Of a stretch of DNA of 64,000 nt, positions 18,292 to 32,554 are shown in pieces (the stretch's first letter is position 1; each line of letters opens with the position of its first letter). The notes beneath the pieces were generated by a model that did not search any database, was not told the origin of the DNA, and saw only the letters and a list, made by a program, of their open reading frames with translations. The stretch covers positions 115,849 through 179,848 of the forward strand of contig JANQFQ010000051.1 in assembly GCA_028277765.1 (NCBI GenBank), given 5' to 3'. Both the position numbers and the translations under genes were made by a program. The stretch comes from Desulfobacterales bacterium. Lineage in GTDB: Bacteria; Desulfobacterota; Desulfobacteria; Desulfobacterales; SURF-7.

Positions 18292-18292
18292 A

Positions 18293-18467: not shown

Positions 18468-18543
18468 TGGCAGGGGCGGAAGGATTCGAACCTTCAATTT
18501 ACGGCGTCAAAGGCCGCTGTGTTGCCAGTTTCACCACACCCCT
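18468..18543 (-). tRNA. tRNA-Gln (TTG)
   Basis: Loop cuUUGac, T-arm GAAGG-TTCGAAT-CCTTC, CCA encoded. Confidence 0.7.
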
Positions 18544-18656
18544 TTTTAAAAGCAGTTATAAGTTACAAGTGCCTTAAGTTAATGTATCGCTTCGCTCTGT
18601 CATCTTTAAACATACAAATTGTTAGAATTCATTCACTTAAGGCACTGCCTTTTACC

Positions 18657-18731
18657 TGGAGCGAGTAACCGGAATCGAACCGGTGTTTCAAGCTTGGAAG
18701 GCTTGCACTCTACCTGTTGAGTTATACTCGC
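18657..18731 (-). tRNA. tRNA-Gly (TCC)
   Basis: Loop cuUCCaa, acceptor GCGAGUA/UACUCGC. Confidence 0.75.
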
Positions 18732-18732
18732 T

Positions 18733-18806
18733 TGGAGCGAATGGCGGGAATTGAACCCGCGTTTCAACCATGGCAAGGTTGTGTTCTCCCCCTGAACTAC
18801 ATTCGC
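18733..18806 (-). tRNA. tRNA-Gly (GCC)
   Basis: Loop uuGCCau, acceptor GCGAAUG/CAUUCGC. Confidence 0.75.
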
Positions 18807-18807
18807 A

Positions 18808-18884
18808 TGGTGGAACGGATTGGAATTGAACCAATGACGCTTAGGGCTTCAACCTAACGCTCTACCAGCTTGAGCTACCGTTCC
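18808..18884 (-). tRNA. tRNA-Phe (GAA)
   Basis: Loop uuGAAgc, canonical D-arm AGCUCAAGCUGGUAGAGC. Confidence 0.8.
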
Positions 18885-18920
18885 ACAATCTTATATTTTT
18901 ACCATTGGCATAAGTTTCGT

Positions 18921-18955
18921 TTGAATAGTAAACTACACTATTCAACTCAGCTTTA
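18921..18955. promoter_or_regulatory. Palindrome TTGAATAGT-N7-ACTATTCAA followed by CTCAGCTTTAT, copy 1 of 2 (abuts the tRNA-Val 3' end)
   Basis: 9-bp perfect inverted repeat. The same ~35-bp sequence recurs at 33384-33419 directly in front of the rtcR start codon. Confidence 0.5.
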
Positions 18956-19032
18956 TGGTAGGACGAGCGGGATTCGAACCCGCATCCTTCTGCTTGTAAG
19001 GCAGATGCTCATCGCAATTGAGCTATCGTCCT
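18956..19032 (-). tRNA. tRNA-Val (TAC)
   Basis: Loop cuUACaa, T-arm GCGGG-TTCGAAT-CCCGC, CCA encoded. Confidence 0.75.
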
Positions 19033-19075
19033 GTGTTTTACTTTTATCTCCTTCATCATTGTATTACTCTAAAAA

Positions 19076-19181
19076 ATGGCCTGCCATACGTAGCTCGTTG
19101 CTATTTTGCCCTTAGCCCTCCTTCGCTAAAGCTATGGAGGGCACCATCCTTCTTCATCGCTCTGCTCTGAGCGAAGGATGG
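19076..19181. repeat. tRNA-array structured repeat (TASR) copy a: three-hairpin ~105-bp element abutting the tRNA 3' CCA
   Basis: Consensus ATGGCCAGCCAT...GCCCTCC-gtcgctaaagctat-GGAGGGC...CCATCCTTC-n-GAAGGATGG. Six copies at 19076, 20751, 20961, 21420, 21581 and 21822. Confidence 0.65.
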
Positions 19182-19258
19182 TGGAGGCACCGGTAGGATT
19201 TGAACCCACAACCAACTGCTTACAAGGCAGCTGCTCTTGTCCGTTGAGCTATGGTGCC
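19182..19258 (-). tRNA. tRNA-Thr (TGT)
   Basis: Loop cuUGUaa; CCA encoded and followed by a second CCA belonging to the repeat. Confidence 0.7.
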
Positions 19259-19297
19259 TTTCTTCTTTTTTATCTTTTACCCATCCAATTTTTCTTT

Positions 19298-19369
19298 TGG
19301 CACACCGGTAAGGAATCGAACCCTAGCCTACTGGTTTGGAGCCAGCCTGGTCACCATGACCTCCGGTGC
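19298..19369 (-). tRNA. tRNA-Trp-like (CCA) with aberrant D-arm (3-nt D-loop)
   Basis: Loop cuCCAaa, acceptor GCACCGG/CCGGUGU with G.U pairs, T-arm UAGGG-TTCGATT-CCUUA. D-arm collapses to GGUCA-ugg-UGACC. Confidence 0.5.
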
Positions 19370-19475
19370 GCATTTCATTACTTCTTTCCTGATGTTGTGC
19401 CTATAAAATGGCAGCGCTGAAAGCGCACCACAACTTAAGGCACTTGTAACTTATAACTTAAGCCACTTTATTATC

Positions 19476-19550
19476 TGGTCGGAGAGGAGGGACTTGAACC
19501 CCCAACTACGTGGCCCCAAACCACGCCGTCTCCCAATTGACTCACTCTCC
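19476..19550 (-). tRNA. tRNA-Pro (TGG)
   Basis: Starts CGGAGAG, loop uuUGGgg, CCA encoded. Confidence 0.7.
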
Positions 19551-19589
19551 GATTTTTCTATGAACATAAAATATGCTCCTGTTTATACA

Positions 19590-19667
19590 TGGGGTGTCGG
19601 AGGGGATTCGAACCCCCAACTACCTGAGCCACAATCAGGCGCTCTCCCCGTTGAGTCTACCGACACC
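19590..19667 (-). tRNA. tRNA-His (GTG) with genomically encoded G-1
   Basis: Loop uuGUGgc; extra 5' G opposite discriminator C; CCA encoded. Confidence 0.8.
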
Positions 19668-19748
19668 ATAAAAATGACAATACGCTTTCTTTTTTAGTTT
19701 CTAAGAAGTCACTCCTTTGCGTTAAAATATCTTGCTACCATTCTTGTT

Positions 19749-19795
19749 TAAAATCCGAAGCACGAAATTCGAAATCCGAAACAATATCAAATGAC
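19749..19795. repeat. 48-bp repeat copy A (forward) AAATCCGAAGCACGAAATTCGAAATCCGAAACAATATCAAATGACC
   Basis: Near-identical to 36327-36372 and reverse-complementary to 17744-17796. Confidence 0.6.
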
Positions 19796-19962
19796 CGAAA
19801 TACAAATTTCCGAAACACAAAAACATTTTGTTTTATAAAATCCAATGTTTTGAAAGTTTTAAAATTCGATATTCGGATTTAAAATTATCGTCATTAACTG
19901 TTCCCATAAATTACCTGCTAAATACCTTTCCTTATAAACGAGACTTTTTACAGTTTTGGTTT

Positions 19963-20038
19963 TGGCTGTGAGGGTCGGATTCGAACCGACGATTTCCTGA
20001 TTAACAGTCAGGCTCCTTGCCAGCTAGGATACCTCACA
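19963..20038 (-). tRNA. tRNA-Asn (GTT)
   Basis: Loop cuGUUaa, D-arm UCCU-agcuggca-AGGA, CCA encoded. Confidence 0.7.
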
Positions 20039-20122
20039 GCATGTTATCCTTTACAGCATTGCCCCAGCCCGCTGCCGCGATGTGTTCATCGCGGCAGCTT
20101 GATACTTTGAGCAATATACGGC

Positions 20123-20629
20123 TTAATAGATGCCTGCTTTTACAAGCAGATCATAAACGCCGATACTGTCGAGATGCTTCTTAATGAACTCCATAACTGT
20201 CGGCTGATAAGGCACAAAGTTTCTCTTATTAAAAAACATCTTTGCTTCCCTTAGGGTCCTGTCACCTTTTTTGTTATTGCAATCCACGCAGGAAGTTACA
20301 GTGTTTTCAAAAGTATTCTTACCTCCTCGTGACTGCGGAAAAACATGATCAATGTTCAGATTTTTTTTGGTTCCGCAGTAAACACATTTGAATACATCCC
20401 GAACCATCACGTTTTTTTTGGACCATGCCACAGCCTTTCGATAAATCTGTCTGACCAGATAAATCAGACGGAGAATCAACGGCACAACAATCTCTTCTGT
20501 TGCGGTTCTTACAATCATTTCAGAATACTTCTCCACGGTCACCTTTCCCTTGGCAACCAGCTTTAAAGCCCGTCGCACGGAAATGCTGTTAATGTAAGAA
20601 TAGTCCTGGTTTAAAAGTATTACTCTCAT
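20123..20629 (-). CDS. HNH endonuclease embedded in the tRNA array
   Basis: CVYCGTKKNLNIDHVFPQSRGG...N..VTSCVDCNNKKG HNH/zinc-finger motif; 168 aa. Confidence 0.75.
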   Translation of the reverse strand: MRVILLNQDYSYINSISVRRALKLVAKGKVTVEKYSEMIVRTATEEIVVPLILRLIYLVRQIYRKAVAWSKKNVMVRDVFKCVYCGTKKNLNIDHVFPQSRGGKNTFENTVTSCVDCNNKKGDRTLREAKMFFNKRNFVPYQPTVMEFIKKHLDSIGVYDLLVKAGIY

Positions 20630-20642
20630 GATCCACCGCCTT

Positions 20643-20717
20643 TGGCGCGCCTGGCAGGAATCGAACCCGCATATCAGAGCTTAGAAGGCTCCTGCTATTC
20701 CGTTTAGCTACAGGCGC
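20643..20717 (-). tRNA. tRNA-Arg (TCT)
   Basis: Loop cuUCUaa, acceptor GCGCCUG/CAGGCGC, CCA encoded. Confidence 0.75.
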
Positions 20718-20750
20718 TTGCCCATTATAACCTGCTTCTCCTTTCATTCT

Positions 20751-20855
20751 TAATGGTTTGCCCTCCGTAGCTCGATGTCTTTGATCCTTTTGCCCTCCGC
20801 CGCTAAAGCTATGGAGGGCACCATCCTTCTTCATCGCTCTGCTCTGAGCGAAGGA
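20751..20855. repeat. TASR repeat copy b
   Basis: Near-identical to copy a (..gccctccgccgctaaagctatggagggcaccatccttcttcatcgctctgctctgagcgaaggatgg). Confidence 0.65.
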
Positions 20856-20931
20856 TGGTGGAGGCGACAGGAATCGAACCCGCACGATACTGGATGCAAA
20901 CCAGCTGCTCTCCCTATTGAGCTACGCCCCC
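20856..20931 (-). tRNA. tRNA-Ala (TGC)
   Basis: Loop uuUGCau, and G3.U70 Ala identity pair present in acceptor GGGGGCG/CGCCUCC. Confidence 0.75.
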
Positions 20932-20960
20932 ATTTTCATTTCACTTAATCCTATCAATTT

Positions 20961-21037
20961 TAATGGCCTGCCATCCGTAGCTCGTTGCTATTGAGCCCTT
21001 AGCCCTCCTTCTTCGTCGCTTTACTCCGAGCGAAGGA
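20961..21037. repeat. TASR repeat copy c (middle hairpin deleted)
   Basis: atggcctgccatccgtagctcgttgc...ccctccttcttcgtcgctttactccgagcgaaggatgg. Confidence 0.6.
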
Positions 21038-21115
21038 TGGTGAGTGTGGAGGGACTCGAACCCTCAACTTACAGATTAAAAGCCTGTTACGCTGATCCAG
21101 TTGCGTCACACACTC
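21038..21115 (-). tRNA. tRNA-Lys (TTT)
   Basis: Loop cuUUUaa, acceptor GAGUGUG/CACACUC, CCA encoded. Confidence 0.7.
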
Positions 21116-21148
21116 ACATGTTAAACATCCTTTCCTCTATTTGTTTTC

Positions 21149-21224
21149 TGGTAGCGGCGGCCGGATTTGAACCGGCGCTGCACTGGATATGAACCAGTTG
21201 CTCTGCCTATTGAGCTACGCCGCA
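21149..21224 (-). tRNA. tRNA-Met/Ile2 type (CAT) with U1.U72 terminal mismatch
   Basis: Loop uuCAUau, T-arm GCCGG-TTCAAAT-CCGGC. The 1-72 mismatch is initiator-like but the anticodon stem lacks the three G-C pairs. Confidence 0.6.
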
Positions 21225-21231
21225 ACAAAAT

Positions 21232-21306
21232 TGGTAGCGATACCTGGAATCGAACCAGGGTTGCTCGATTATCGGTCGAGTGTTCTGCCTGCTGAACTAT
21301 ATCGCC
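21232..21306 (-). tRNA. tRNA-Ile (GAT), unusual C33
   Basis: Loop ccGAUaa, acceptor GGCGAUA/UAUCGCU, CCA encoded. Confidence 0.65.
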
Positions 21307-21319
21307 CCGATTTATATTC

Positions 21320-21398
21320 TGGCACCCCCGGGAAGATTCGAACTCCCGCAAACCCGGCTTCGAAGGCCGGCGCTCTGGATCCGCTGAGCTACGGGGGC
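21320..21398 (-). tRNA. tRNA-Arg (TCG)
   Basis: Loop cuUCGaa, acceptor GCCCCCG/CGGGGGU, CCA encoded. Confidence 0.6.
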
Positions 21399-21419
21399 AT
21401 ATGTCATCAAAACTTTCTT

Positions 21420-21493
21420 TAATTTCTTTGCCCTCCGTTGCTAAAGCTATGGAGGGCACCATCCTTCTCTGTCGCGCTGCTCCGAGCGAAGGA
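21420..21493. repeat. TASR repeat copy d (5' part missing)
   Basis: ..gccctccgttgctaaagctatggagggcaccatccttctctgtcgcgctgctccgagcgaaggatgg. Confidence 0.6.
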
Positions 21494-21569
21494 TGGTGGA
21501 CCCGGAAGGCATCGAACCTCCATAATACCGGTTATGAGCCGGCTGCTCTGCCGATTAAGCTACGGGTCC
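21494..21569 (-). tRNA. tRNA-Met (CAT), elongator-type
   Basis: Loop cuCAUaa, acceptor GGACCCG/CGGGUCC fully paired, CCA encoded. Confidence 0.7.
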
Positions 21570-21580
21570 AATTGCTTCTC

Positions 21581-21690
21581 ACGCCATATGGCCAGCCATC
21601 CGTAGCTCGTTGCCATTGAGCCCTTAGCCCTCCGCCGTTAAAGCTATGGAGGGCACCATCCTTCTCCGTCGTATTGCTCCGAGCGAAGGA
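21581..21690. repeat. TASR repeat copy e
   Basis: atggccagccatccgtagctcgttgccattgagcccttagccctccgccgttaaagctatggagggcaccatccttctccgtcgtattgctccgagcgaaggatgg. Confidence 0.65.
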
Positions 21691-21773
21691 TGGTGAGAGG
21701 GGGATTCGAACCCCCAAGGCTGTTACGCCCCACAGTTTAGCAGTCTGCTGCCATACCGTTCGGCCATCTCACC
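21691..21773 (-). tRNA. tRNA-Ser (GCT), class II, CCA not encoded
   Basis: Acceptor GGUGAGA/UCUCACC, loop cuGCUaa, long variable arm, T-arm GGGGG-TTCGAAT-CCCCC. Confidence 0.65.
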
Positions 21774-21821
21774 ATGTTTTCAATTTCGGTCTATGTATTA
21801 CCGTTTGCATTACCTCCTTTT

Positions 21822-21926
21822 TTATGGCCAGCCATCCGTAGCTCGGTGCATTTGATCCTTTTGCCCTCCGTCGCTAAAGCTATGGACGGCGCCATCCTTC
21901 TTCGTCGACTTACTCCGAGCGAAGGA
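21822..21926. repeat. TASR repeat copy f
   Basis: ttatggccagccatccgtagctcggtgc...gccctccgtcgctaaagctatggacggcgccatccttcttcgtcgacttactccgagcgaaggatgg. Confidence 0.65.
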
Positions 21927-22019
21927 TGGCGGAGGGACAGAGACTCGAACTCTGACGCGCCTTTTCAGGCGTTACTGGTTTTCAAGACCAGGCCCCGCCC
22001 CGCTGGGGTCAACCCCTCC
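21927..22019 (-). tRNA. tRNA-Ser (TGA), class II, 93 nt with irregular D-arm
   Basis: Anticodon arm CUGGU-cuUGAaa-ACCAG and T-arm CAGAG-TTCGAGT-CUCUG closely match enterobacterial tRNA-Ser(UGA). Long variable hairpin. TGA anticodon, not TCA, so not tRNA-Sec. Confidence 0.65.
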
Positions 22020-22230
22020 GAATGTCTATCCCGAATTTCGGGCGCAATTCACCTGTGAAAGTTTTTAAACATTTTTGTAAAAACTTTCTGTTTCGAACAG
22101 TACTATTGGCGTCTGACCCTGAATAAAAGCCCGGATTTTTCTGTAGCATTCAAGCTGTTTAAAAATCCGGTGATCGGTCAATTAACGGGATTTTCCGTTA
22201 TTTAGCGCATTCTATTTTCCTGTTCATATA

Positions 22231-22310
22231 ATCTTCTTCAAAAAAAAACCCTTTCAGTATGCCTTGGGCAACCGAAAGGGTTTATAAAAAGCATACTGAT
22301 CGTAGTAATC
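22231..22310. ncRNA. Candidate structured RNA motif, copy 1 (pseudoknot-capable: CCCTTTC..AGTATGC..GAAAGGG..GCATACT plus CTGA..TCAG hairpin)
   Basis: Interleaved complementarity, conserved in a second copy at 22551-22640 with a compensatory T>C / A>G change in the second helix. No ORF. Confidence 0.4.
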
Positions 22311-22550
22311 AGGTCATATGTTCCTCCGTATCTATAATTGCACTGGAAAAATTTAAATTGGCACAGAGCAATGAGGACATACTCCTGCGTTTAGTATTAC
22401 TGCCCGGGTAATACCATAGGTCGCTCTTGGGTATATATTGTTTTAATTGCTGCATTTTTTCCTTTACCTTGTTTGTAATCGAAACTGTTTTTTCAATTAA
22501 ATCCCCATTGGGCAGGTTTGGAACCCGCCCCTACATTAATCTAAATATTT

Positions 22551-22640
22551 GTTCAACCAATTAAAAAGCCCCTTTCAGCATGCTGCCGAAAGGGGCTGTA
22601 AAATTCATGCTGAAATTTAGTATCAGTTCATGGGCCCCTC
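22551..22640. ncRNA. Candidate structured RNA motif, copy 2
   Basis: GCCCCTTTCAGCATGCTG..CCGAAAGGGGCTGTAAAATTCATGCTGAAATTTAGTATCAG aligns with copy 1 and keeps all three pairings. Confidence 0.4.
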
Positions 22641-22894
22641 CCGGCGTGATATTCTGACATATGCCAGATGAATACCGTTATAAAACGGATTCAAGAGGGT
22701 GGCTTCGGATAGGCTAAAATCCAAAAGCCTTTTAATTTGTTTTAAACATAGTAACCAAATCATTTTTAAATTCCTTAGTAATTTTTAACCTAATTATACA
22801 CTCTCTTTCGCGCGAAGTCAACAGCCGATTTTTATCATTCTTGATTTAAAATCTCCTGAGAAGCCTATAAAACCTGTATTTCTTTTACAAATAA

Positions 22895-23413
22895 TCATAA
22901 TGAAATTTTTAGGCCAAACTTTTCTTTTATTGTCAGCAACGCTTCTGCATTCCCTTTTGCATCATCTACAGGATAATGCGTATGTTTGGTTTTCCTTAGA
23001 TGTTTAAAATTCTTAAACATATCTTTTACAATACCTTTATATAAAGATCCTAAGTTCGTTGAACTAAATCCAAAGGGATTCTTTCCTGTAAAATGATGAA
23101 AATACCAGTTAATAAATTGCCAATCAAAACCATTGTTATCAGAGATAAACATTGGCTGGCTTTTAGAGTGCGTTTTAATCCAGCTAGCAAAATTCATCAT
23201 GACCTCTTTTGGTTCATCAAACGCCAGTACTTCCTCCCGGCTAAAGCCACTCACTGCCAGTGCTTCAGGAATCCAGTTTTCTGAAATCGGCCGCATTTGC
23301 CCGTAAAAAGTTTTTTCAAGGCCCGGTTTTACGATAACCGCCCCAAAGCTGATCATCGAATAATCGTCAGGTATGGGACCATCAGATTCTATATCTACCA
23401 TTATATAACTCAT
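22895..23413 (-). CDS. DEDDh-family 3'-5' exonuclease (DnaQ/RNase T-like), single domain
   Basis: Exo I MVDIESDG, Exo II FISDNNGFDW, Exo III HxxxxD as HTHYPVDDA; 172 aa. Confidence 0.75.
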   Translation of the reverse strand: MSYIMVDIESDGPIPDDYSMISFGAVIVKPGLEKTFYGQMRPISENWIPEALAVSGFSREEVLAFDEPKEVMMNFASWIKTHSKSQPMFISDNNGFDWQFINWYFHHFTGKNPFGFSSTNLGSLYKGIVKDMFKNFKHLRKTKHTHYPVDDAKGNAEALLTIKEKFGLKISL

Positions 23414-23427
23414 TTATAACCTCCAGA

Positions 23428-23511
23428 GGAGATGGTGGGCACAGCCCACCCTACAAATCAACCGATCTATAGCTTTAACAAAACGTAGGGCGGGCTGTGC
23501 CCACCATCTCC
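23428..23511. repeat. Long perfect palindrome R1, copy 1 (27-bp arms GGAGATGGTGGGCACAGCCCACCCTAC, ~30-nt loop)
   Basis: Intercistronic between the exonuclease and HEAT genes. Second copy at 28213-28293. Confidence 0.7.
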
Positions 23512-23512
23512 T

Positions 23513-25165
23513 TTAAACCTTTTCCAGGTTAAATCTTATGCTTTTCACAATCCAGTCATCAATATATTTCCCAAATTTCAACAATGCATTTTCTATTCGC
23601 TTTTTCTGGTCCTGAGTCGGTTTTGTAAAGCTTCTATTAAACCCTGGCGGCCATTTTTCCAAATACATTACGGCTCTTTCTTTTACTATTGCATCAGCTG
23701 ATACAGCACCTTCAATCAAATAAGAAACACTGTCCCATTTTGAAAGATGCCTGATCACAAAAAGAATATTAAGCTTACTGTACTGTTTGTCAGTATTCTT
23801 AAATGCTCTCCAAAGCTCATCTGCATCATATATGTATTTTAACGTACTTAAAATCATTGCTGCTTCCCGTGAAATACCCGGGGTGTCTTCAACGATTTTT
23901 CGGGAAAAAAGCTCCGCATATTCTTTGGGGCTTAATTTGCCCACAGCACGAATCGCGGCTTTTCTAATTTTCGCAAGTCGATGTGTAACAGCACCAACAA
24001 TTAAATCCGCATCATCACTTTTGCCTGTTTCACCTAAACCGCAAATAGCCCCCTGCAGTTTTTCTTTTTTTTCCTGTTTAATGAATTTGCGATAAATTTC
24101 AGCAAAATCTATTTCTTTCTTTTTGGCCAGATAAAATCTGGCAAACTCCCTGATCGATTTATGAGAATCGAGCAGGGAGTCATACAGTTTATCTTCTGCC
24201 TGATCAGGAAACCTTTCAATTATGACCGATAATGCCTCTCTGCGCACAGGCATAAAGCTGTTTGAGAGCATTTTTTTAAGGCACTTTGAAATATAAATTT
24301 CATCATAAAGCGCTCTAATTTTTCGAGCACATTTTATCCTGATAACACAATCATGATCTGCCAGCCCAATGTCCAGGGCTTCATTTTCTATACCTGTATT
24401 AACATTAAGAACCAATTGAAAACAGCTCCTCCTTGCTTTCAGGTCGATTAAAAACAAGCCGTTTTTCAAAGCATCATATGAATGCTCACTGGTTAATAAA
24501 GCGGTTATTTTTTCAACCGTCTCTTTATGATCATGTCGCCTGCAGTCTAAAAGACTGTTGATAATAGCCATGTTTGACACAAAATGTTCTATATAATCCT
24601 CGTCAATTCGGCTCTTAATGCTCCTTAAAGCTATTTTATGAATTTCCCTCACCCAGTCATTTAACCTGATGAGAATAAACGGCAATTCCTTTCCAGATTT
24701 TATTTTTCTAAGTTTCTTTAGTGCTGATTCACGTATATATCCATTACTGTGAAATGTTGTTAATGCAAGAACGGCAAAAGATTCATCGTTTTTCCCTTTA
24801 AAATGCCCCACATCTGCAGGGACCAAATTCCATTGCCCATAACTGCTCATCGTGTAATACGGTGATCTTTCACGCACTTGCAAATCAAGCCAACCCAGCT
24901 CAGACACTGGAATCATTTTTAAAAGTGTTTCAAGGACACTTGATGCAGCTGTCGCAACATCCAGATGTTTTGAATATGCAAAAGGCAAAATATCCGGGAT
25001 TACCGCCGGTTCCATGCGAGAGCCGATTTGGATGATATGGTCGGCAATCCTGCTTGAATCTTCAAAAAGTTTATTAAGCTGTCCCCCAGAATCATATAAT
25101 TCATTTATCAAGCTCCTGGTCACTTCAGAAACTTTGCGTGAAAATGTATGGGTACTCTGTTTCAT
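23513..25165 (-). CDS. HEAT/armadillo-repeat protein
   Basis: Repeated amphipathic helix pairs (..VRREALSVIIE.., ..AKIRKAAIRAVGKL..) over 550 aa. All-alpha by composition. Confidence 0.55.
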   Translation of the reverse strand: MKQSTHTFSRKVSEVTRSLINELYDSGGQLNKLFEDSSRIADHIIQIGSRMEPAVIPDILPFAYSKHLDVATAASSVLETLLKMIPVSELGWLDLQVRERSPYYTMSSYGQWNLVPADVGHFKGKNDESFAVLALTTFHSNGYIRESALKKLRKIKSGKELPFILIRLNDWVREIHKIALRSIKSRIDEDYIEHFVSNMAIINSLLDCRRHDHKETVEKITALLTSEHSYDALKNGLFLIDLKARRSCFQLVLNVNTGIENEALDIGLADHDCVIRIKCARKIRALYDEIYISKCLKKMLSNSFMPVRREALSVIIERFPDQAEDKLYDSLLDSHKSIREFARFYLAKKKEIDFAEIYRKFIKQEKKEKLQGAICGLGETGKSDDADLIVGAVTHRLAKIRKAAIRAVGKLSPKEYAELFSRKIVEDTPGISREAAMILSTLKYIYDADELWRAFKNTDKQYSKLNILFVIRHLSKWDSVSYLIEGAVSADAIVKERAVMYLEKWPPGFNRSFTKPTQDQKKRIENALLKFGKYIDDWIVKSIRFNLEKV

Positions 25166-25179
25166 TTTTTTAATTTCGC

Positions 25180-25250
25180 ATAAGTAGGTTAGGTTGAGCC
25201 GGTTTGCCCATGTTGGGTTAAAAACCGAAACCCAACCTACAAAAATTTAG
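25180..25250. repeat. R2 hairpin element, copy 1 (GTAGGTTG..GTTGGGTT-loop-AACCCAACCTAC)
   Basis: Second copy at 28362-28428; both intercistronic in the minus-strand operon. Confidence 0.55.
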
Positions 25251-25282
25251 CGTTCAATCCTTTGCAATCCCATAGACCACAG

Positions 25283-27145
25283 TTAACAATGCTTAATCAA
25301 ATCAATAATCGTGGTTTTATCAAGCATCTCTGGTGACAAGTCAATGTGATCACCGTCAGGTTTTTCAGCAACCACGGTTGCCCCTGCTATACTCAACATT
25401 TCTCTAAAATCTAGAGAATTCACCATACTGCCAACCAAATATTTTCTTGCATACTTTGATTGCTCGTTCTTTGCAGATGTAATGGAATTACCAATGCTGA
25501 CGTTTGCAAAGTACACCCGGTTCTCTCCATCAATATTTACGATCAATCCTAAGATGTTCTGCTTTTTAGTAATATTTATATTAGCACTCGCAATAAGATT
25601 GTTCACATCGATCATATAATTTTTTTTAAACTTATTTGGTTTTTCATGTGCAGCCATAATCTTGCACTCGACTTCATCACCTTTTTGGAAATTATAGTAA
25701 TTCACCATTAATATCCTTGCTTCCTGGTATCCCTTTTTGATGTAAAAAAGCTCAGATGCTCCTCGCGGTGCAGGCGCGTCCGTAATATCCCCGGAGAACA
25801 GAACACTTCGGTCATCTGACCGATAAGCCTCATCCCATCCTATCTTGCCGGATTCACCAATAACAGATAAGTCCAAATCTACCTGCTTATTGGTATTTGT
25901 CCAATGAATACCCACAATCAAATCTTCCGGCACTGAGATATAACTGCCTGTTGGGAGATTTCCGGTAAACTGCTTTTCCGTTGCTGGTAAAGCATAATAA
26001 ACGTTTGATGGAATATAAAACGTCTTTTGATTAACATTCTTCTGGATATCACCGACTATTGAAGTAACAACTATATCCAGCGCTTCCCGGGTCGTTTCAT
26101 TAAGGCATTCATGCCACTCAAATTCTGTTGCCCAGCCGCGGCCGTTTCGAATTTTGTAAACAATTGATCCTTCAGGTTGAAGACGATGCTTGAGGGCATA
26201 TGCCAGGCGAATTTTCCGAAAGATACTTGCTTTTTCAATCCTTTCTCCTAATTCATCCAAATTTAATGTTCCGTATTTTATTTGAGACGTTATGCTGTTC
26301 AAATAATCTTCCGGTAATGGAACGTGTAATTTGTCTGCTTTTTTCCGTAATTGATTAAAAAATGTCTTATTTTGCGAAATAGACTTCATGGCTAAAAATA
26401 ATGGTTTAAACCGAAAGAAAATAGAAGCCAGATCGTCTGGCGCATCTTTAATCAACATATCCAGGAATTTTCCATTTGCTTCCTTTATCTTCTCGATCAA
26501 ATAATCACTTTTTATAATTAATGATTCGTCTGTCAGCTTGCTAATCAAATGACGCAAAAACTCAACCGGATCAGAAGGCACAAGGCCATAAAGGTCATAA
26601 AGCAATGCCTTCAGCTCTCGATTGCCTATCTCATGGGCAAAATCACTGTCATAGTTATTGGCTTTTACAATGGTCATAATATCGTCCAATGTTTCTTGCG
26701 CAAGAGCGATTCCTGACCCTAAGTTTATAATTCTGTCAAGGATCTCCTGTGCATCCATCGCCTTAATAATAATTAACGGGACGCTGTCTTTAATAACAGG
26801 CAGTTCCAAAACCTCACTTGGAATATAAACCGCATCTTCCCGATAAATACCAAGCTCCTTGTATCCATACGTGGTTATGTAATGAATGATTTGCTGAATC
26901 ACTAAAGATTCCATTGAAGCATTCTGGACGACTTCCCAGGACTTATGAAAGGCAGCATTTGCTTTTTCACCGGAAATACCTACAACACTTTCAATAACAT
27001 CCAGCAAATCATTATTCGGCCATATGGCTTCATCAAGCAGATAACCGTTTTTAATTGTCCGCTCAAGAACAGACTGAGGTATATTTTTTTTGTTTTTGTT
27101 CTTAACTTGAATAGCATTAAACAATCTCAATGTTGCAGTTTTCAT
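25283..27145 (-). CDS. Large hypothetical protein (620 aa; N-terminal alpha-helical ~350 aa, C-terminal beta-rich domain)
   Basis: Long ORF with AAGGAGA 9 nt upstream of the ATG. No motif I can name; no MIDAS/vWA motif and no TROVE hallmark seen by eye. Confidence 0.6.
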   Translation of the reverse strand: MKTATLRLFNAIQVKNKNKKNIPQSVLERTIKNGYLLDEAIWPNNDLLDVIESVVGISGEKANAAFHKSWEVVQNASMESLVIQQIIHYITTYGYKELGIYREDAVYIPSEVLELPVIKDSVPLIIIKAMDAQEILDRIINLGSGIALAQETLDDIMTIVKANNYDSDFAHEIGNRELKALLYDLYGLVPSDPVEFLRHLISKLTDESLIIKSDYLIEKIKEANGKFLDMLIKDAPDDLASIFFRFKPLFLAMKSISQNKTFFNQLRKKADKLHVPLPEDYLNSITSQIKYGTLNLDELGERIEKASIFRKIRLAYALKHRLQPEGSIVYKIRNGRGWATEFEWHECLNETTREALDIVVTSIVGDIQKNVNQKTFYIPSNVYYALPATEKQFTGNLPTGSYISVPEDLIVGIHWTNTNKQVDLDLSVIGESGKIGWDEAYRSDDRSVLFSGDITDAPAPRGASELFYIKKGYQEARILMVNYYNFQKGDEVECKIMAAHEKPNKFKKNYMIDVNNLIASANINITKKQNILGLIVNIDGENRVYFANVSIGNSITSAKNEQSKYARKYLVGSMVNSLDFREMLSIAGATVVAEKPDGDHIDLSPEMLDKTTIIDLIKHC

Positions 27146-27163
27146 CGTAATCTCCTTTTAAAT

Positions 27164-27217
27164 GGGGCGAGAGGTAATTTAACTTATCGAGTTTTTTTTA
27201 AGGAACCTCTTGTGCCC
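27164..27217 (-). ncRNA. Hairpin module C (GGGC-ACA-AGAGG-U .. A-CCUCU-C-GCCC with A-rich loop)
   Basis: Same architecture as modules at 27345 and 28306, with compensatory base changes (GGGAG/CUCCU versus AGAGG/CCUCU). Confidence 0.55.
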
Positions 27218-27227
27218 TTCAATATGT

Positions 27228-27340
27228 CGGGGAAGGCAGGAATCGAACCTGCGACCGCCGGGTCCAAGATTTCAGGAACCCCCTGTGCCATAAAGCGGAG
27301 AGTAAAAAATCCCGGTGCTCTACCGCTGAGCTACTTCCCC
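27228..27340 (-). ncRNA. tRNA-like RNA (Y-RNA / YrlA-like tRNA mimic): intact acceptor, D-arm and T-arm, anticodon loop replaced by a 48-nt insertion
   Basis: GGGGAAG-UA-GCUC-AGCGGUAGA-GCAC-C-CCGGG-[48 nt incl. GGCACAGGGGGUUCC]-CCCGG-CGGUC-GCAGG-UUCGAUU-CCUGC-CUUCCCC. No CCA encoded. Sits in the rtcB operon flanked by hairpin modules. Confidence 0.6.
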
Positions 27341-27344
27341 ATAT

Positions 27345-27390
27345 GGGCGAGGAGTATTTTTCAAGGGTTTTTTAAGGAACTCCCTGTGCC
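27345..27390 (-). ncRNA. Hairpin module A (GGGC-ACA-GGGAG-U .. A-CUCCU-C-GCCC)
   Basis: Immediately 5' of the tRNA-like element in RNA sense; near-identical copy at 28306-28352. Confidence 0.55.
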
Positions 27391-27424
27391 CAAATGTTTC
27401 ATCTTTTTACAAATTAATATATTA

Positions 27425-27802
27425 TTAATATTTATTTGTTTTTAAAAATTTTTCTGCCTTTTTGACAAACAAATTACATCTTTTGGTTTTTTTCGCCACA
27501 TTAATAAATTTAGTGTATTTCTCTTCTGCTTTATTAAACCGCCCTGCTGTTTCATGGGATAAAGCTTCCCAAAAAATAGCCTCGTAAAGCATGGGAGATA
27601 ATTTCCATGCTTTTCGACTTGCGAAAATTGCCCTATCAATATCCCCTTCATTAAACCGGTTAAAATATTGAATCGTAGCATCAGCCACAGCAAGCAAAAC
27701 AAGCGGATCATCCTGATCCTTTTTATACTTTTCTAAAATTTCATCCATTTGCGCTTTTATCACTTCTCTGTTTTCGTCTACAGGATACACACCGAATTGC
27801 AC
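27425..27802 (-). CDS. Hypothetical protein (125 aa)
   Basis: ORF only; weak. Confidence 0.3.
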
Positions 27803-28184
27803 TGGAATGAAAATTAAATTTCAAGGTTTCATACCAGTATTTCTGCTCTTTGGCAGAAAAAACAAATAATTGGTTGCACTGAACACATTCCCTTTCAATA
27901 TCAACATAAAAATATTTTGGTGTATGGCACATATGGCAGAACATCTGCTCTCGAATATTGCCAGCCACCGCATTTTTAGGAAGTTTCGGTTTATAATCCG
28001 GATCATAACCCCATGTTTTATTTTTTTTGCCATTGAAACCAATGGTTGTTTTTTCAATCATTGGAATCTCACCAAATAATGGATGAGAAACAAATCGTCT
28101 ATTGTCAGCCAAAGATTTCTTATACTTTCTTTTCTTTAACTTCTTCTTTTCTTTCTTTGAATATGCTGATCGTCGAACACGCAT
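27741..28184 (-). CDS. Basic zinc-ribbon protein (CHMCH..CVQC..CVSC), 147 aa
   Basis: Lys/Arg-rich N-terminus, three Cys pairs; ORF only. Confidence 0.4.
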
Positions 28185-28212
28185 TTTATTCTAATCCTTA
28201 ACCGTTCAAAGG

Positions 28213-28293
28213 ATATGGTGGGCACAGCCCACCCTACAAATCAATCGATCTGTAGCTTTGATAAACCGTAGGGTGGGCTGTGCCCACCATCTC
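28213..28293. repeat. Long perfect palindrome R1, copy 2
   Basis: ATGGTGGGCACAGCCCACCCTAC ... GTAGGGTGGGCTGTGCCCACCAT. Confidence 0.7.
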
Positions 28294-28305
28294 ACTTCCC
28301 AATAT

Positions 28306-28352
28306 GGGCGAGGAGTAATTTTCAAGGTTTTTTAAAGGAACTCCCTGTGCCC
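28306..28352 (-). ncRNA. Hairpin module A' (third copy)
   Basis: gggcgaggagtaattttcaaggttttttaaaggaactccctgtgccc on the + strand, about 125 bp upstream (RNA sense) of the rtcB start region. Confidence 0.55.
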
Positions 28353-28361
28353 AATTATTCA

Positions 28362-28428
28362 GCTTTAAGTAGGTTGCCTGCTTGCCCATGTTGGGTTGAA
28401 AACCGTAACCCAACCTACAAATTAGCGT
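28362..28428. repeat. R2 hairpin element, copy 2
   Basis: taggttgcctgcttgcccatgttgggttgaaaaccgtaacccaacctacaa. Confidence 0.55.
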
Positions 28429-28477
28429 TTGTAAAACAAGATGGGATAAAGGCGAAACCCAACACTTTTGGATTATA

Positions 28478-29683
28478 TCAACCTTTTACCACCCCTAACG
28501 GTCTCAGTTTAACAAGCGGCTTAATCAGATCCAGTTCTGCTTCAATGACCGCGTCAATATCTTTATACGCCTGTGGTGCTTCGCTGAGATCGACCATCCC
28601 TTTTGTTTTACCTCTTTTTACTTTGCTCCACCGGTCATACACGATCCCTTCCATGGCCTTGTCGCATTCTTCAGGCGTTAATGCCCGTGTTGCCTGCATC
28701 CTTCCCATGACACGGCCTGCGCCGTGAGAACAGGACATAAAGGATTCAATGTTTCCGAGCCCTTTCACAATATATGACGATGTCCCCATGGAACCTGGAA
28801 TAATCCCGGTTTCATCCTGTTTGGCTGATGTAGCGCCTTTTCTGTGGACCCAGACATTTTTGCCAAAATGATTTTCCAGAGCAGCATAATTATGGTGTAT
28901 ATTCACCTGGTTTCCAAATTCAGCATCCTTATAAACTGATGTAAAAGCGTCTATAAATCTGTCCATAATTCGCTGCCTGTTCTCTCTTGCATATGCAAGG
29001 GCGAAATTCATATCTTTGATATAATCCTGGCCCTCCTGTGTGTTTACCGGTAAAAACGCTAGGTCCTTGTTCGGGATATTCGAATGGAACTTCCGGTTTA
29101 ACTCAAGGGCACGGTCATTATAAAACCTTGCAATCATATTGCCCAGGTGTCTTGACCCGGAATGGATCATCAGCCACACATGGTTATCATCACCTGCCTG
29201 GATTTCAATAAAATGATTGCCGCCACCCAGGGTTCCCAGATTTCTGCAGGCAAGATCCCTTACATGGGCAGAAAACCATTTTCTGTCACTATATGAATCA
29301 ATATCGTCTTCAAACCCTTCCCATGTCTGTTCTTTTTTATGTGCCTTGCCTTCGCCGCATGGAACCGTTTTCTTAATCATGTTGACAACTTCCCTGAGCT
29401 GTTCTCTGGTGGTATTTTCAACTTCGATACTTGTCCTCACAGCCCCCATCCCACAGCCGATATCCACACCAACAGCATTTGGAATCACCGTATTTGTGCA
29501 GGCAATCACACCGCCAATCGGCATCCCATACCCCTGATGACAGTCCGGCATCAGCGCCACATGGCGAAACACAGCCGGGTGCTGTGCTAAATCCGCAGCC
29601 TGATCCATTGCCCCATCTTCAATATCTTTACACCATGATTTGACCGGTACTCTAAAATTATCTTCCTGTTTTATCCATTCCAT
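28478..29683 (-). CDS. rtcB: RNA-splicing ligase RtcB (3'-phosphate/5'-OH RNA ligase)
   Basis: GTLGGGNHFIEIQ, HSGSRHLG and other RtcB blocks; 401 aa. Confidence 0.9.
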   Translation of the reverse strand: MEWIKQEDNFRVPVKSWCKDIEDGAMDQAADLAQHPAVFRHVALMPDCHQGYGMPIGGVIACTNTVIPNAVGVDIGCGMGAVRTSIEVENTTREQLREVVNMIKKTVPCGEGKAHKKEQTWEGFEDDIDSYSDRKWFSAHVRDLACRNLGTLGGGNHFIEIQAGDDNHVWLMIHSGSRHLGNMIARFYNDRALELNRKFHSNIPNKDLAFLPVNTQEGQDYIKDMNFALAYARENRQRIMDRFIDAFTSVYKDAEFGNQVNIHHNYAALENHFGKNVWVHRKGATSAKQDETGIIPGSMGTSSYIVKGLGNIESFMSCSHGAGRVMGRMQATRALTPEECDKAMEGIVYDRWSKVKRGKTKGMVDLSEAPQAYKDIDAVIEAELDLIKPLVKLRPLGVVKG

Positions 29684-29698
29684 AATAACACCTCTTTT

Positions 29699-30127
29699 TC
29701 ACTGCCATTGTTTTAACGCGAAATATGGTCCTAATCCAATGCTCTGCTCATGGGTAAAGGCCATAGTCCATTCCATATCTTCAGGAAAAACATAATAATC
29801 ACCAAAAGCTGATAGATCATGAAGCGTTTTAGAACAGCATTTGTATCCCAGGTTATCGTCTTTCTCAGAGAGTACATAATATTCTTTTGATGATACATTC
29901 TTATATAATTCAATAGCTCTTGCCCCAAGCTTGTGAATGGCGAAGTCGAAACTGAATGTATGCCAGTTATAATCGCCATAAATCCACTTTCCTTTTTTTT
30001 CCTTGATGATCTTTGAAAATGTTTCTCGCCATTTTTGCTGTAATTTCCAAGTTTCTTTTTTTGTAAGCTGGAAATATTGTATTGAATGTTCTTCAAAAAA
30101 TGTTTCTAGCATTTTCTTTAATTTCAA
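29699..30127 (-). CDS. Hypothetical protein (142 aa) inserted between rtcA and rtcB
   Basis: ORF with upstream spacing consistent with the operon. No recognisable domain. Confidence 0.45.
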   Translation of the reverse strand: MKLKKMLETFFEEHSIQYFQLTKKETWKLQQKWRETFSKIIKEKKGKWIYGDYNWHTFSFDFAIHKLGARAIELYKNVSSKEYYVLSEKDDNLGYKCCSKTLHDLSAFGDYYVFPEDMEWTMAFTHEQSIGLGPYFALKQWQ

Positions 30128-30338
30128 ATAATTGAATTTTTCACCTCTTAATATCTACAACCTGTTTTATCCTGTCAATTTTGTCTTTTTGCCATATTAA
30201 AAAAGACAGAATTTCATAAAGCACTTTCTTTAAAACCCGATCACGACCACGACCACCGCTCCGCTGATCACGACCACGAATTATAATGGCAGAGCGAAGC
30301 GATACATCAACTTTAGGCACTTATAACTTTAGTGCACT

Positions 30339-31358
30339 TTAGGCACTTTTTATGTCAATCTCCCACTCATTCTGCCCATATTCTTGCATATCAATGTCAA
30401 CATCCAGAAACTCTTTAATAATATCAATATTCGTCCTTGTATGTTTTGTCGGTGAAAGCGTTCTGAATTTACCTCCACCGGCCATGGCCATTGGAATCAG
30501 TAACTGATCCGCAAGATATCTGCCCACTGGCACATCATATGCCAGATATTCCCGTACAGATTTTGCTGTCCGGTTTGCCACCTTTTCCGCTGAAACGCCT
30601 CTTTCACCAAATCCCGTGAAAACCTCTGTAATATATTCACTTTCAATCTCTATTGTCAGAATATTCCCCGGGCCCTGAGAGTTTTCAACTTCAACCGTTC
30701 TTAATTCTTCCCTGTTCCATTCCAGCTTTTCCTTGATCACTTTAATCTCCCTGTGCGCGATCTTCACCGGCAGGTTTGCCACAACCGCGCTGGCGATTTT
30801 CCTGACAGTTTTTCCGCGATCCAGAAGATCAATACTATTAAGCTTTGTAGGATTAATCGTCACCTTAAATCTGCCTCCGCCTGCTGGATAAAAGCCCGGC
30901 TTTTCAAGCACAGCATCAACCCTTGGCCCCATCCGCTTAATCACCGGCAGAAAAGCTTTTTCAAGAAAGTCAAAAGGCGGAGCATATGGATTATGCGTTC
31001 CCCCTTCCAGAACAATCTCTGAAGGACCATCTGCAACTATTAGCGCCGGTAAAATAGTTTGAAAAACCAGGGTGCAGCTTCCGGCAGAGCCGATGGCAAA
31101 ATGATAATTGCCCGGTTTGATGGTTTCAGGCTCAAATGTAAACGCCTGTGAACCGATCCGGTTTCCCTGGATAGCAGCCTTGCCGATCTCTGCCGCGGCA
31201 TTTACCGCAGTAAGATGCTGACGCATCAGTCCCGGCTTTTTTCGCCCAGCCCGGATATTGCTTATTGTAAACGGCTTTCCTGTTACCAACGAAAGCGCAA
31301 GGGACGTTCTTAGAATCTGACCGCCGCCTTCACCATATGAACCGTCAATTAAAATCAT
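30339..31358 (-). CDS. rtcA: RNA 3'-terminal phosphate cyclase RtcA
   Basis: MILIDGSYGEGGGQILRTSLALSLVTGKPF..RQHLTAV N-terminal signature; 339 aa. Confidence 0.9.
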   Translation of the reverse strand: MILIDGSYGEGGGQILRTSLALSLVTGKPFTISNIRAGRKKPGLMRQHLTAVNAAAEIGKAAIQGNRIGSQAFTFEPETIKPGNYHFAIGSAGSCTLVFQTILPALIVADGPSEIVLEGGTHNPYAPPFDFLEKAFLPVIKRMGPRVDAVLEKPGFYPAGGGRFKVTINPTKLNSIDLLDRGKTVRKIASAVVANLPVKIAHREIKVIKEKLEWNREELRTVEVENSQGPGNILTIEIESEYITEVFTGFGERGVSAEKVANRTAKSVREYLAYDVPVGRYLADQLLIPMAMAGGGKFRTLSPTKHTRTNIDIIKEFLDVDIDMQEYGQNEWEIDIKSA

Positions 31359-31447
31359 TAGTATTTCCTTTTTAAAATTTGTTCAGATACAGAAACGATT
31401 ATGATGGGATGCTCCACCTTTTAGCAGAACATCCCATCAGTTAAAGG

Positions 31448-32554
31448 TTATAATAAATTAACAACCCTGTCAGCAAGTCCCTTTTCACCCAGCACAACAT
31501 TGAGCTTTGAATTTCCTGCAACTTTCTCAAGAACATCCAGCTCTCGCAGGCGCATAAGTGTTGGGTTGTTGTCCAGGAGTTTAGCTGTATTGGCCTGGCT
31601 ACGCATAGCAGCTGTCTCTTCTCTACGCGTAATCAGGTTGGCATCTGCTGCTTTCTGGGCCTCGATGACTTTATTCATGAGGTCCTTCATATCTCCTGGC
31701 AGAATCACGTCCCTGATACCAAGTGCCAGCACATCAATACCGAATTCAGCTACTCGCTCCTTTATCGTATCTTCCAGATCTTTTGCCACTCTCTCTTTGT
31801 CGCTCAGGAGTGTATCCAGATCAAATGTTCCAATAACAGCCCGTAACGCCAGCTGTGCTTCACGGTATACAGCGTTTTTGCTGTCATCCACAACAGACAC
31901 GGACTTAAGCGCGTCCACAACCTTGTAAGTAATCACGGCATTCATTCGCAGTGTCACCTTGTCAGAGGTCATGATCTCCTGGCCGGATACATCCATTACC
32001 GTCTCACGCATATCAACATGATAAAATTTTACTTTTCCCATATTTCTCCAGAACATGTACTGGCCTGGTCCGAAAGTATCTACATGTACACCGTCTTTAA
32101 AGTAAACACCTGCAAAACCCTGCTCAACATTAGAAATGTTCAGTGCATGTTCTACGCCACTGGATTTCGCGATGATGTTAAGGTCCTTGTGATTAAATCG
32201 CACATCTCTCGCATCCACAACTTCAACTTTTACATTGCGAAATTTTGTCCAAAGTGCGTATAAACCTGGATCCAGAACCATTTCAAACCGTCCGTCAATC
32301 CAGACCAGTCCCCGCTGGTGATCCTTAAGGTCAAGGACTTCCGCGTGACCTTTCAAAGCGCCTGACTTTACAATCATGTCAAGGTCTTCATGCATAAACC
32401 AGGCATCCCGCTGGGAAACAACGGCTACCTTGACATTGCATAAAGGATCGACGAACCAGTGACGCCCTTTTCCTAAAAGGCCTTTGAATTCACGATCCCG
32501 AAAGTATAATCCTTTTTCATAAGAACGAATTTTTTTAGTTTTGATTAAGAACAT
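31448..32554 (-). CDS. SPFH/band-7 (stomatin/flotillin-like) domain protein
   Basis: PHB-domain region plus C-terminal coiled-coil (..EAQKAADANLITRREETAAMRSQANTAKLL..); 368 aa. Confidence 0.75.
   Translation of the reverse strand: MFLIKTKKIRSYEKGLYFRDREFKGLLGKGRHWFVDPLCNVKVAVVSQRDAWFMHEDLDMIVKSGALKGHAEVLDLKDHQRGLVWIDGRFEMVLDPGLYALWTKFRNVKVEVVDARDVRFNHKDLNIIAKSSGVEHALNISNVEQGFAGVYFKDGVHVDTFGPGQYMFWRNMGKVKFYHVDMRETVMDVSGQEIMTSDKVTLRMNAVITYKVVDALKSVSVVDDSKNAVYREAQLALRAVIGTFDLDTLLSDKERVAKDLEDTIKERVAEFGIDVLALGIRDVILPGDMKDLMNKVIEAQKAADANLITRREETAAMRSQANTAKLLDNNPTLMRLRELDVLEKVAGNSKLNVVLGEKGLADRVVNLL

Follow-up and report, generated by a model that had tools for sequence, protein, structure and literature searches.

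A stretch of 64,000 nucleotides (nt) from a Desulfobacterales bacterium (assembly GCA_028277765.1, contig JANQFQ010000051.1, positions 115,849 to 179,848; hereafter the window) carries on its minus strand three consecutive genes, here called p620, HEAT550 and exo172 after the encoded proteins of 620, 550 and 172 amino acids (aa), that lie between an RtcR/Band-7/RtcA/RtcB operon and a 27-gene tRNA array. An earlier note, made from the letters of the sequence alone, had described the three open reading frames (ORFs) and their place, distal to rtcB and the tRNA-mimic RNAs, had taken the region to be concerned with RNA repair and tRNA, and had recognized a stand-alone DEDDh exonuclease, a HEAT solenoid, an alpha+beta protein with no nameable motif and a palindrome in each intercistronic spacer. 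All of this description is borne out, the genes being downstream of rtcB and of two tRNA-like RNAs (27228-27340 and 33013-33076) and upstream of the array. The proposal built on it, that the three genes form one effector module, fares differently and is dealt with below. What is of greater interest lies just outside the coordinates with which the note was concerned, and is a widespread pairing of p620 with an RNA that mimics tRNA. The protein and its RNA are probably a new tRNA-mimic ribonucleoprotein (RNP), and the analysis points to p620 and HEAT550 as two undescribed players in tRNA damage control.

p620 and the RNA element upstream of it

The stretch of approximately 250 nt that lies upstream of p620 is conserved at the DNA level across phyla. 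For comparison 132 p620 loci were used (52 from genomes, taken with up to 10 kb of flank, and 80 viral), with 80 HEAT550 loci and seven exo172 loci serving to assess co-occurrence. The shared element, a hairpin of two helices and an asymmetric internal loop, comes in two forms, one free (S) and the other contained in a tRNA-like RNA (T). Form S reads GGGC / ACA / 6-bp variable helix / UCC ... U / ACnnnn / C / GCCC, and form T, as aligned to the Rfam tRNA family, is a cloverleaf with about 44 nt in place of the anticodon loop; the two are circular permutations of one module, with the internal loop identical. Three S copies and one T copy are present in the window (Table 1). The T copy is not called as a tRNA by ARAGORN, and it is not a canonical tRNA as the 7-nt anticodon loop is absent, with the acceptor, D, anticodon and T stems nevertheless present and covarying. 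With nhmmer and a covariance model, 20 of the 52 genome loci show a form T of at least 89 bits that immediately precedes p620 and has its orientation. In some it is found as two or three tandem copies (L014 9562-9979, L011 9560-9981, L018 5710-6191), several of which end in GCCA or ACCA, so that a CCA-like 3′ terminus following the acceptor stem is encoded.

Evidence that the structure is maintained as RNA comes from both forms. For form T, RNAalifold yields the four tRNA stems plus the inserted hairpin, with compensatory double changes in 13 of 30 pairs; the observed covariation was reached in 0 of 500 column shuffles, and sliding the 3′ partner drops pairing from 96.6% to 38-53%. For form S, an unbiased test was to match the conserved flanking letters alone and only then count the five tested pairs. 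Upstream of p620, all five pairs are formed by 106 of 116 distinct flank matches and four by a further nine, whereas for 40 flank matches elsewhere, used as controls, pairing is distributed as chance predicts. When pairing is required, 33 of the 50 genome loci and 55 of the 78 viral loci have the S motif no more than 600 nt upstream of p620, with zero opposite-strand matches in 2.08 Mb and a single match in 638 kb of unrelated control loci. It is kept where p620 identity is only 26-38%, an Asgard archaeon included, and the element is present across bacteria, an archaeon and phages. The proximal S copy begins 84 nt (median) ahead of the start codon, and the proximal copy in the window ends 8 nt before an AAGGAG ribosome-binding site. 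(A reading of GGCAC-N5-GTTCC within the motif as a sigma-54 promoter was ruled out because the motif also occurs in the Asgard archaeon and phages and covaries as an RNA helix; a genuine sigma-54 promoter, TGGCAC-N5-TTGC, precedes the Band-7 operon.)

Hairpin or tRNA-like copies are also found just downstream of p620 in several loci (L029 3016; L042 6798; L146 4519-4545; L181 9900-10085; L182 3900; L195 and L204 9879-9902), where they could serve 3′ regulation, be a further RNA gene or mark the boundaries of a cassette. With permissive E-values, Rfam searches of 22000-33400 gave only tRNA for the p620 RNA and no Y-RNA match; a match to ‘skipping-rope’ (E 1.9), and matches to miRNA precursors from a repetitive extragenic palindrome (REP)-like hairpin considered below, are noise. 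Neither Pfam, Rfam 15, PHROGs, PADLOC nor the literature that could be searched yielded a description of the p620-RNA pair, Burroughs & Aravind 2016 being outside that coverage.

The structure model of p620, a confident one (pLDDT 87.6, pTM 0.86), adds to the earlier description a TerD beta-sandwich fold toward the C-terminus, where FSGDITD (residue 450) shows no, or almost no, variation across the family; there is also a local NCBIfam match to SCO0854 (2e-7). For p620 there was no Pfam match at E up to 0.1, TerD and TROVE included, no PADLOC or PHROG match, and no link at E < 0.2 to any PDB sequence by phmmer or profile, Ro60 not being found. Foldseek against the PDB gave nothing significant (Rsr came second at E 0.049). 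No structural relative of the N-terminal alpha/beta domain (395 residues) is convincing, and when the domain was compared with 1.84 billion representatives only the family of the same architecture was seen among the 150 matches listed, with no bridge to TROVE or any other family.

There are 1,742 detectable p620 homologues, at 60-77% identity in Cyanobacteria, Chloroflexota, Desulfobacterota, Gammaproteobacteria, Planctomycetota and others, with more distant relatives in Firmicutes, Bacteroidota and archaea; the family counts 1,136 protein clusters, with members from bacteria, archaea and large phages, and is labelled hypothetical in every record examined. In cellular genomes the gene is mostly alone. 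There are cases of company pertinent to RNA repair, e.g. RtcB directly downstream of p620 in L011, a Band-7 gene directly preceding the p620 tRNA-like RNAs in L018, and RtcA, Band-7 and an 18-tRNA array in L012; an HNH gene is directly upstream of p620 in L063. Among viruses, IMG/VR gave 137 hits, many on contigs of 50-325 kb. At least four tRNA genes are present in 26 of the 80 viral loci and at least 10 in 16, and in the cultured cyanophage S-CRM01 the homologue, g174 (‘hypothetical protein’), is in the middle of a tRNA array. That p620 is so often found within tRNA arrays of phages suggests that it takes part in the contest between phage and host over tRNAs.

Because the structure survives circular permutation, is locked to one protein family and lies beside the ribosome-binding site of that family, we infer that p620 binds it. 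p620 would then be an RNA-binding protein whose partner RNA is encoded just upstream, and it would recognize the two-helix hairpin both in the untranslated region (UTR) and in the tRNA-like RNA. With the latter it may make up a tRNA-mimic RNP comparable in function to Ro60-YrlA or Band-7/b7a-tRNA, and via the hairpin copy in its 5′ UTR it may repress its own translation.

HEAT550 and exo172

HEAT550 consists of tandem helix-turn-helix repeats in a superhelix, with HEAT profile matches. Its family is of uniform length (approximately 540 aa), with members 24-38% identical to the window protein. For its context, 80 metagenome loci, many of them short contigs, were considered together with three fetched earlier. 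RNA-repair genes are beside HEAT550 relatives in 16 of these 83 loci; in 11 the neighbour is RtcB, at times joined by RtcA, and in five it is Hen1/Pnkp. There are 4-nt gene overlaps with RtcB, Pnkp or Hen1; in Longimicrobium the relative is between Hen1 and Pnkp. There is also a compact seven-gene operon (L116, 40-7402) in which HNH, an Rnl-type ligase, an HD phosphohydrolase/P-loop kinase, HEAT, RtcB, RtcA and a methyltransferase are encoded, thereby uniting two different ligases with a single HEAT protein. Eight HEAT550 loci have at least four tRNAs nearby, and the HNH family of the window tRNA array is also beside HEAT550 relatives in L116, L117, L126, L128, L129 and L130. Such recurrent, tight, same-strand linkage in unrelated lineages places the family in RNA-repair operons, so that the earlier association of the HEAT protein with RNA repair holds, as does the idea of a scaffold: it is a recurrent component of mobile RNA-repair/tRNA-array islands, tied to three non-homologous ligase systems (RtcB, Pnkp/Hen1 and Rnl). 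By this context it is probably a scaffold or cofactor of RNA-ligase repair systems. No description of the family with Pnkp, Hen1 or RtcB was found in the literature searched, Burroughs & Aravind 2016 again being outside the coverage.

Some HEAT550 relatives adjoin integrases or a TrwC relaxase. In one lineage (L053-L055; approximately 6375-11250 in L053) the relative follows a tyrosine integrase in an island that also has a TIR-domain gene, a context that fits mobile or defence-island cargo. A protein of about 295 aa without a Pfam match adjoins relatives in three RNA-repair loci (L089 1451-2347, L129 2700-3587, L132 2507-3382), in L129 being encoded between HEAT and RtcB, and may be another uncharacterized repair component.

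The DEDDh residues of exo172 are D7 and E9 (DIE), D92 (SDN) and H146 and D151 (HYPVDD), so that all three Exo motifs with H-x4-D are present. Its Pfam matches, RNase_T (7e-6) and Rv2179c-like (4e-6), are at 27 bits each barely above the cut-offs. Much stronger are those to the PADLOC profile PDLC00753 ‘Effector/Exonuclease’ (134.8 bits, 6.7e-40, profile positions 8-177 of 184) and to E. coli Cap18, PDB 7T2S (100.6 bits, E 9.7e-28, residues 3-132 aligned), so that in sequence exo172 is nearer to Cap18/Exo than to generic DEDDh families. For Cap18/Exo (the Sm, Vc and Ec Exo proteins) a 2025-26 preprint reports selective hydrolysis of 2′-5′ phosphodiester bonds, with linear dinucleotides so linked as substrates; neither cleavage of DNA or RNA nor binding to them could be detected (bioRxiv 10.1101/2025.03.04.641389). 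By analogy, exo172 may hydrolyse short or 2′-5′-linked nucleotides, and is more likely to act on these than as a processive exoribonuclease. Three kinds of substrate are conceivable, namely 2′-5′-linked products or signalling intermediates, 2′-5′ mis-ligation products and tRNA 3′ ends; with phage-encoded relatives, action on 2′-5′ signalling intermediates could conceivably damp CBASS-type signalling. Pfam and PADLOC scans of neighbouring genes (a subset of window ORFs) turned up neither a cyclase nor any CBASS component. The part that the earlier note gave to the enzyme, that of a recruited exoribonuclease, is accordingly hard to keep given what is reported for its nearest characterized relative, and a more general caution follows: since the nearest relatives are 2′-5′ phosphodiesterases, an exoribonuclease annotation or an analogy to Rsr/PNPase would probably mislead.

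Homologues of exo172 with 75-83% identity are found in Planctomycetota, Verrucomicrobiota and Bacteroidota, and two cellular relatives examined are each alone amid unrelated genes. Five viral loci were found. Because three of these are inside tRNA arrays (two of the three nearly identical, and one with RtcB), exo172 seems to be an occasional passenger of tRNA islands.

The island and the juxtaposition of the three genes

The remainder of the window carries ordinary chromosomal genes, e.g. for a two-component system and sugar-nucleotide enzymes, and the region is therefore taken as an island within a bacterial chromosome, in which the Band-7/b7a-tRNA/RtcBA system, already known, is joined by a long tRNA array. 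As the sigma-54 promoter lies between RtcR and the b7a-type RNA, that RNA is probably the first product of the RtcR-dependent transcript. A tRNA array unit is defined (PMC4758250) as at least 20 tRNA genes at a density of at least two per kb, and the array here, with 27 tRNA genes in 4.6 kb and an HNH gene, is of the L-array type; L-arrays are reported to spread horizontally along with HNH endonucleases and rtcB (PMC8421152, PMC4758250).

Table 1. Features of the window relevant to the trio and its surroundings (domain limits of p620 in residues).
Feature	Position	Strand	Remarks
Long tRNA array	17408-22019	minus	27 tRNA genes
HNH endonuclease gene	20123-20629	minus	inside the tRNA array
exo172	22895-23413	minus	172 aa; stand-alone DEDDh nuclease of the Cap18/CBASS-Exo lineage
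REP-like double hairpin	23427-23512		HEAT550/exo172 spacer; second copy at 28217-28288
HEAT550	23513-25165	minus	550 aa; HEAT-repeat solenoid, RNA-ligase-associated family
Imperfect palindrome	~25184-25240		p620/HEAT550 spacer; by direct sequence reading
p620	25283-27145	minus	620 aa; new alpha/beta N-terminal domain ~1-395, TerD-fold domain ~400-550, small C-terminal domain
S hairpin	27165-27217	minus	p620 5′ UTR
p620-associated tRNA-like RNA (form T)	27225-27343	minus	Rfam tRNA 60.3 bits, 44-nt insertion
Second S hairpin	27345-27391	minus	immediately upstream of the p620-associated tRNA-like RNA
TPR-like small protein gene	27425-27802	minus	between rtcB and the p620-associated tRNA-like RNA
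zf_Tbcl treble-clef zinc-ribbon protein gene	27741-28184	minus	after rtcB
Third S hairpin	28306-28352	minus	between rtcB and the zf_Tbcl gene
RtcB	28478-29683	minus	RNA-repair operon (28478-32554)
DUF4275 protein	29699-30127	minus	between RtcA and RtcB
RtcA	30339-31358	minus	RNA-repair operon
Band-7/SPFH	31448-32554	minus	RNA-repair operon
Band-7-associated tRNA-like RNA (b7a-tRNA type)	33013-33076	minus	downstream of the sigma-54 promoter
Sigma-54 promoter TGGCAC-N5-TTGC	33203-33217	minus	perfect match; between RtcR and the b7a-type RNA
RtcR (CARF-like RtcR domain + sigma-54 activator)	33291-35021	plus	divergent from the RNA-repair operon

Within the trio the spacers are 117 nt (p620/HEAT550) and 99 nt (HEAT550/exo172). 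The palindrome of the latter is strong, an inverted repeat with 28-nt arms that are 96% complementary, and the one in the former (GTAGGTTGGGTT...AACCTAACCTAC) is weaker. Each REP-like copy comprises two GGTGGGC-N3-GCCCACC hairpins in inverted orientation, with GTAGGG/CCCTAC on the flanks, four such hairpins being observed in the window versus 0.13 expected; the second copy separates rtcB from the zf_Tbcl gene. In the HEAT550/exo172 spacer one arm of the REP-like hairpin scores as terminator-like, and the first strong terminator below the trio is at 22597-22567. Co-transcription of p620 and HEAT550 is plausible, and that of exo172 with them less certain. Between exo172 and the first tRNA are two small minus-strand cassettes (22240-22830). 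One has a near-consensus sigma-70 promoter, TTGACT-17-TATAAT (22821-22793), a 46-aa ORF (22623-22763) and the terminator just mentioned; the other has a 48-aa ORF (22309-22455) with a ribosome-binding site and a similar terminator, CCCTTTCGG...CTGAAAGGG. Elsewhere in the island, the DUF4275 protein has a weak NCBIfam match to the AcrID1 anti-CRISPR family (E 0.013) that is probably noise, and neither the zf_Tbcl nor the TPR-like protein has homologues in the 52 genome p620 loci.

The account that we consider rather probable is that three independently mobile accessory genes have come to lie side by side in a horizontally acquired tRNA-array/RNA-repair island, with p620 presumably binding RNA, HEAT550 serving as a putative scaffold or cofactor for ligases, and exo172 being Cap18/Exo-like. 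The idea of the earlier note, worked out in full, would instead be a dedicated RNP effector in which HEAT550 would scaffold p620 and the tRNA-like RNA and recruit the DEDDh exonuclease to degrade or trim damaged RNA, as with Rsr/Y RNA/PNPase. The genes being adjacent, co-directional and closely spaced would suit this, as would the occurrence of each family, independently, in tRNA-array contexts and the recurrence of a p620-HEAT pair in one other genome. However, with profile hidden Markov models a HEAT gene is detected in just one of the 132 p620 loci (L014, Marinicella) and exo172 in none of them, nor in any of the 80 HEAT loci, and neither p620 nor HEAT is in any of the seven exo loci. tBLASTn over the 52 genome p620 loci likewise found exo172 in none and the HEAT gene only in L014, and all-against-all ORF clustering of the same loci gave no conserved protein neighbour (a 72-aa ORF downstream of p620 in two of them is not homologous between the two). 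Even p620 relatives with 73-75% identity, the nearest, lack both partners. The terminator-like REP-like double hairpin parts HEAT550 from exo172, and the absence of detectable DNA or RNA cleavage or binding reported for Cap18/Exo counts against recruitment for RNA decay. The families are phylogenetically unlinked in this co-conservation analysis, an outcome that falls under the refutation that the earlier note had set for itself, and a single three-gene effector is now quite improbable, the least probable of the readings considered. What stands of the analogy to Rsr/Y RNA is the idea of an RNP for p620, reasonable because p620 has a conserved tRNA-like RNA partner; what does not is a trio with a recruited exoribonuclease.

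A different type of doubt concerns the hairpin, which might not be a p620-binding site at all. It could serve regulation or processing in cis (as a riboswitch-like leader, a site for an RNase or ribozyme, or the target of some other factor), or be the ends of a selfish p620 cassette that lands in or beside tRNA genes. p620 and its hairpins do move compactly between phyla and phages with variable neighbours, some loci have hairpin copies on the downstream side so that p620 is flanked, an HNH gene is beside p620 in L063 and such genes are within tRNA arrays, and in the window there are hairpin copies 1.2 kb off, before another gene. Yet the motif is confined to the coding strand and its helix covaries as RNA, and the permuted version in a conserved cloverleaf favours a recognized three-dimensional RNA module over a DNA end. 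p620 showed no sign of a transposase, recombinase or ribozyme and no Rfam family was matched, and the constant site beside the ribosome-binding site fits protein-mediated translational control; we regard this alternative as unlikely. Somewhat less likely again is that the adjacency is meaningless, i.e. that three unrelated cargo genes of a mosaic island have functions in this organism with no bearing on RtcB or tRNAs. Unrelated or housekeeping contexts are indeed the rule for cellular relatives of exo172 and common for those of HEAT550 and p620, and the REP-like elements in the spacers suggest patchwork assembly. As a counterpoint, translational coupling joins HEAT550 relatives to three different systems of RNA ligase, p620 comes with a tRNA-like RNA and shows enrichment in the tRNA arrays of phages, and the S hairpin that precedes the zf_Tbcl gene right after rtcB ties the p620 element to the 3′ end of the rtc operon.

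The reading of three independently mobile genes has its own difficulties. In L014, p620 is followed by HEAT550 with the genes overlapping (58% and 28% identity to the window proteins), which hints at some p620-HEAT cooperation because chance is unlikely for two rare families. The trio may well be co-transcribed in the window, being co-directional with short spacers and no earlier strong terminator, and the exo172 relatives in viral tRNA arrays leave room for a tRNA-related role. RtcB, RtcA or Band-7 is near p620 in only about five of the 52 genome loci and a tRNA array in one, and the tie of p620 to RNA repair is loose because most cellular loci have neither RtcB nor a tRNA array nearby.

Comparison with known systems

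Ro60/Y RNA and Band-7/b7a-tRNA are the only helpers so far proposed for bacterial RtcB. To these are now added two testable RNA-repair candidates, p620 with a defined candidate RNA ligand and a HEAT protein coupled to three unrelated ligase systems. A bolder version, which we hold tentatively and put at somewhat below an even chance, is that p620 and its RNA are a third, undescribed class of tRNA-mimic RNP after Ro60-YrlA and Band-7/b7a-tRNA, self-regulating via the UTR and acting in conflicts over tRNA integrity, where it would be, for instance, a decoy or sensor for anticodon nucleases or a repair platform, with HEAT550 a general cofactor of RtcB, Pnkp/Hen1 and Rnl ligases.

With regard to parts of the assembly, the TerD proteins (tellurite-resistance TerD, SCO6318) differ in that the domain in p620 forms one chain with a 395-residue domain whose fold family is unrecognized; p620 has no Pfam TerD match and no ter operon genes nearby. 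exo172 resembles CBASS Cap18/Exo in size, in DEDDh motif and in an end-to-end PADLOC profile match, and differs in lacking a cyclase among its scanned neighbours, in that most of the relatives examined stand alone and in having some relatives in phage tRNA arrays. The window array is like L-arrays in its embedded HNH gene and nearby rtcB, and relatives of p620, HEAT550 and exo172 all recur in such arrays. However, regulation in the window is by RtcR and sigma-54 rather than by cyanobacterial direct repeats, and the accessible part of the L-array literature (PMC8421152) names neither p620, its RNA nor the HEAT family as array-associated.

Two further parallels are to the tRNA-mimic systems. As with Ro60 (Rsr)/TROVE and Y RNAs, a protein of approximately 500-600 aa is encoded beside a non-coding RNA that joins a tRNA-like module to a (here predicted) protein-binding helix with an internal loop, and both systems are near RtcB in some genomes and are present in phages. 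YrlA, a tRNA-mimicking Y RNA, is encoded beside rtcBA in Salmonella and others. Its termini form the Ro-binding stem, whereas the p620 RNA has an open acceptor end with the helix inserted in the anticodon loop, a reversed topology. The p620 RNA is analogous to Y RNA and covarying but without an Rfam Y-RNA match, and its binding by p620 is predicted. Nor does p620 have a TROVE Pfam match or a sequence link to any PDB chain; its C-terminal domain is TerD and that of Ro60 vWA, and a HEAT-like ring closed by vWA/MIDAS was not found in it. With Band-7/SPFH and its b7a-tRNA (Burroughs & Aravind 2016, as outlined in bioRxiv 10.1101/312249), the differences are that p620 is unrelated to SPFH, that its RNA has the 44-nt hairpin insertion, that there are matching hairpins in the UTR and that it usually occurs without RtcB. 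The likeness is that of a predicted scaffold protein with a tRNA-like RNA beside RtcB, and the window, with its own copy of the Band-7 system, has the two together.

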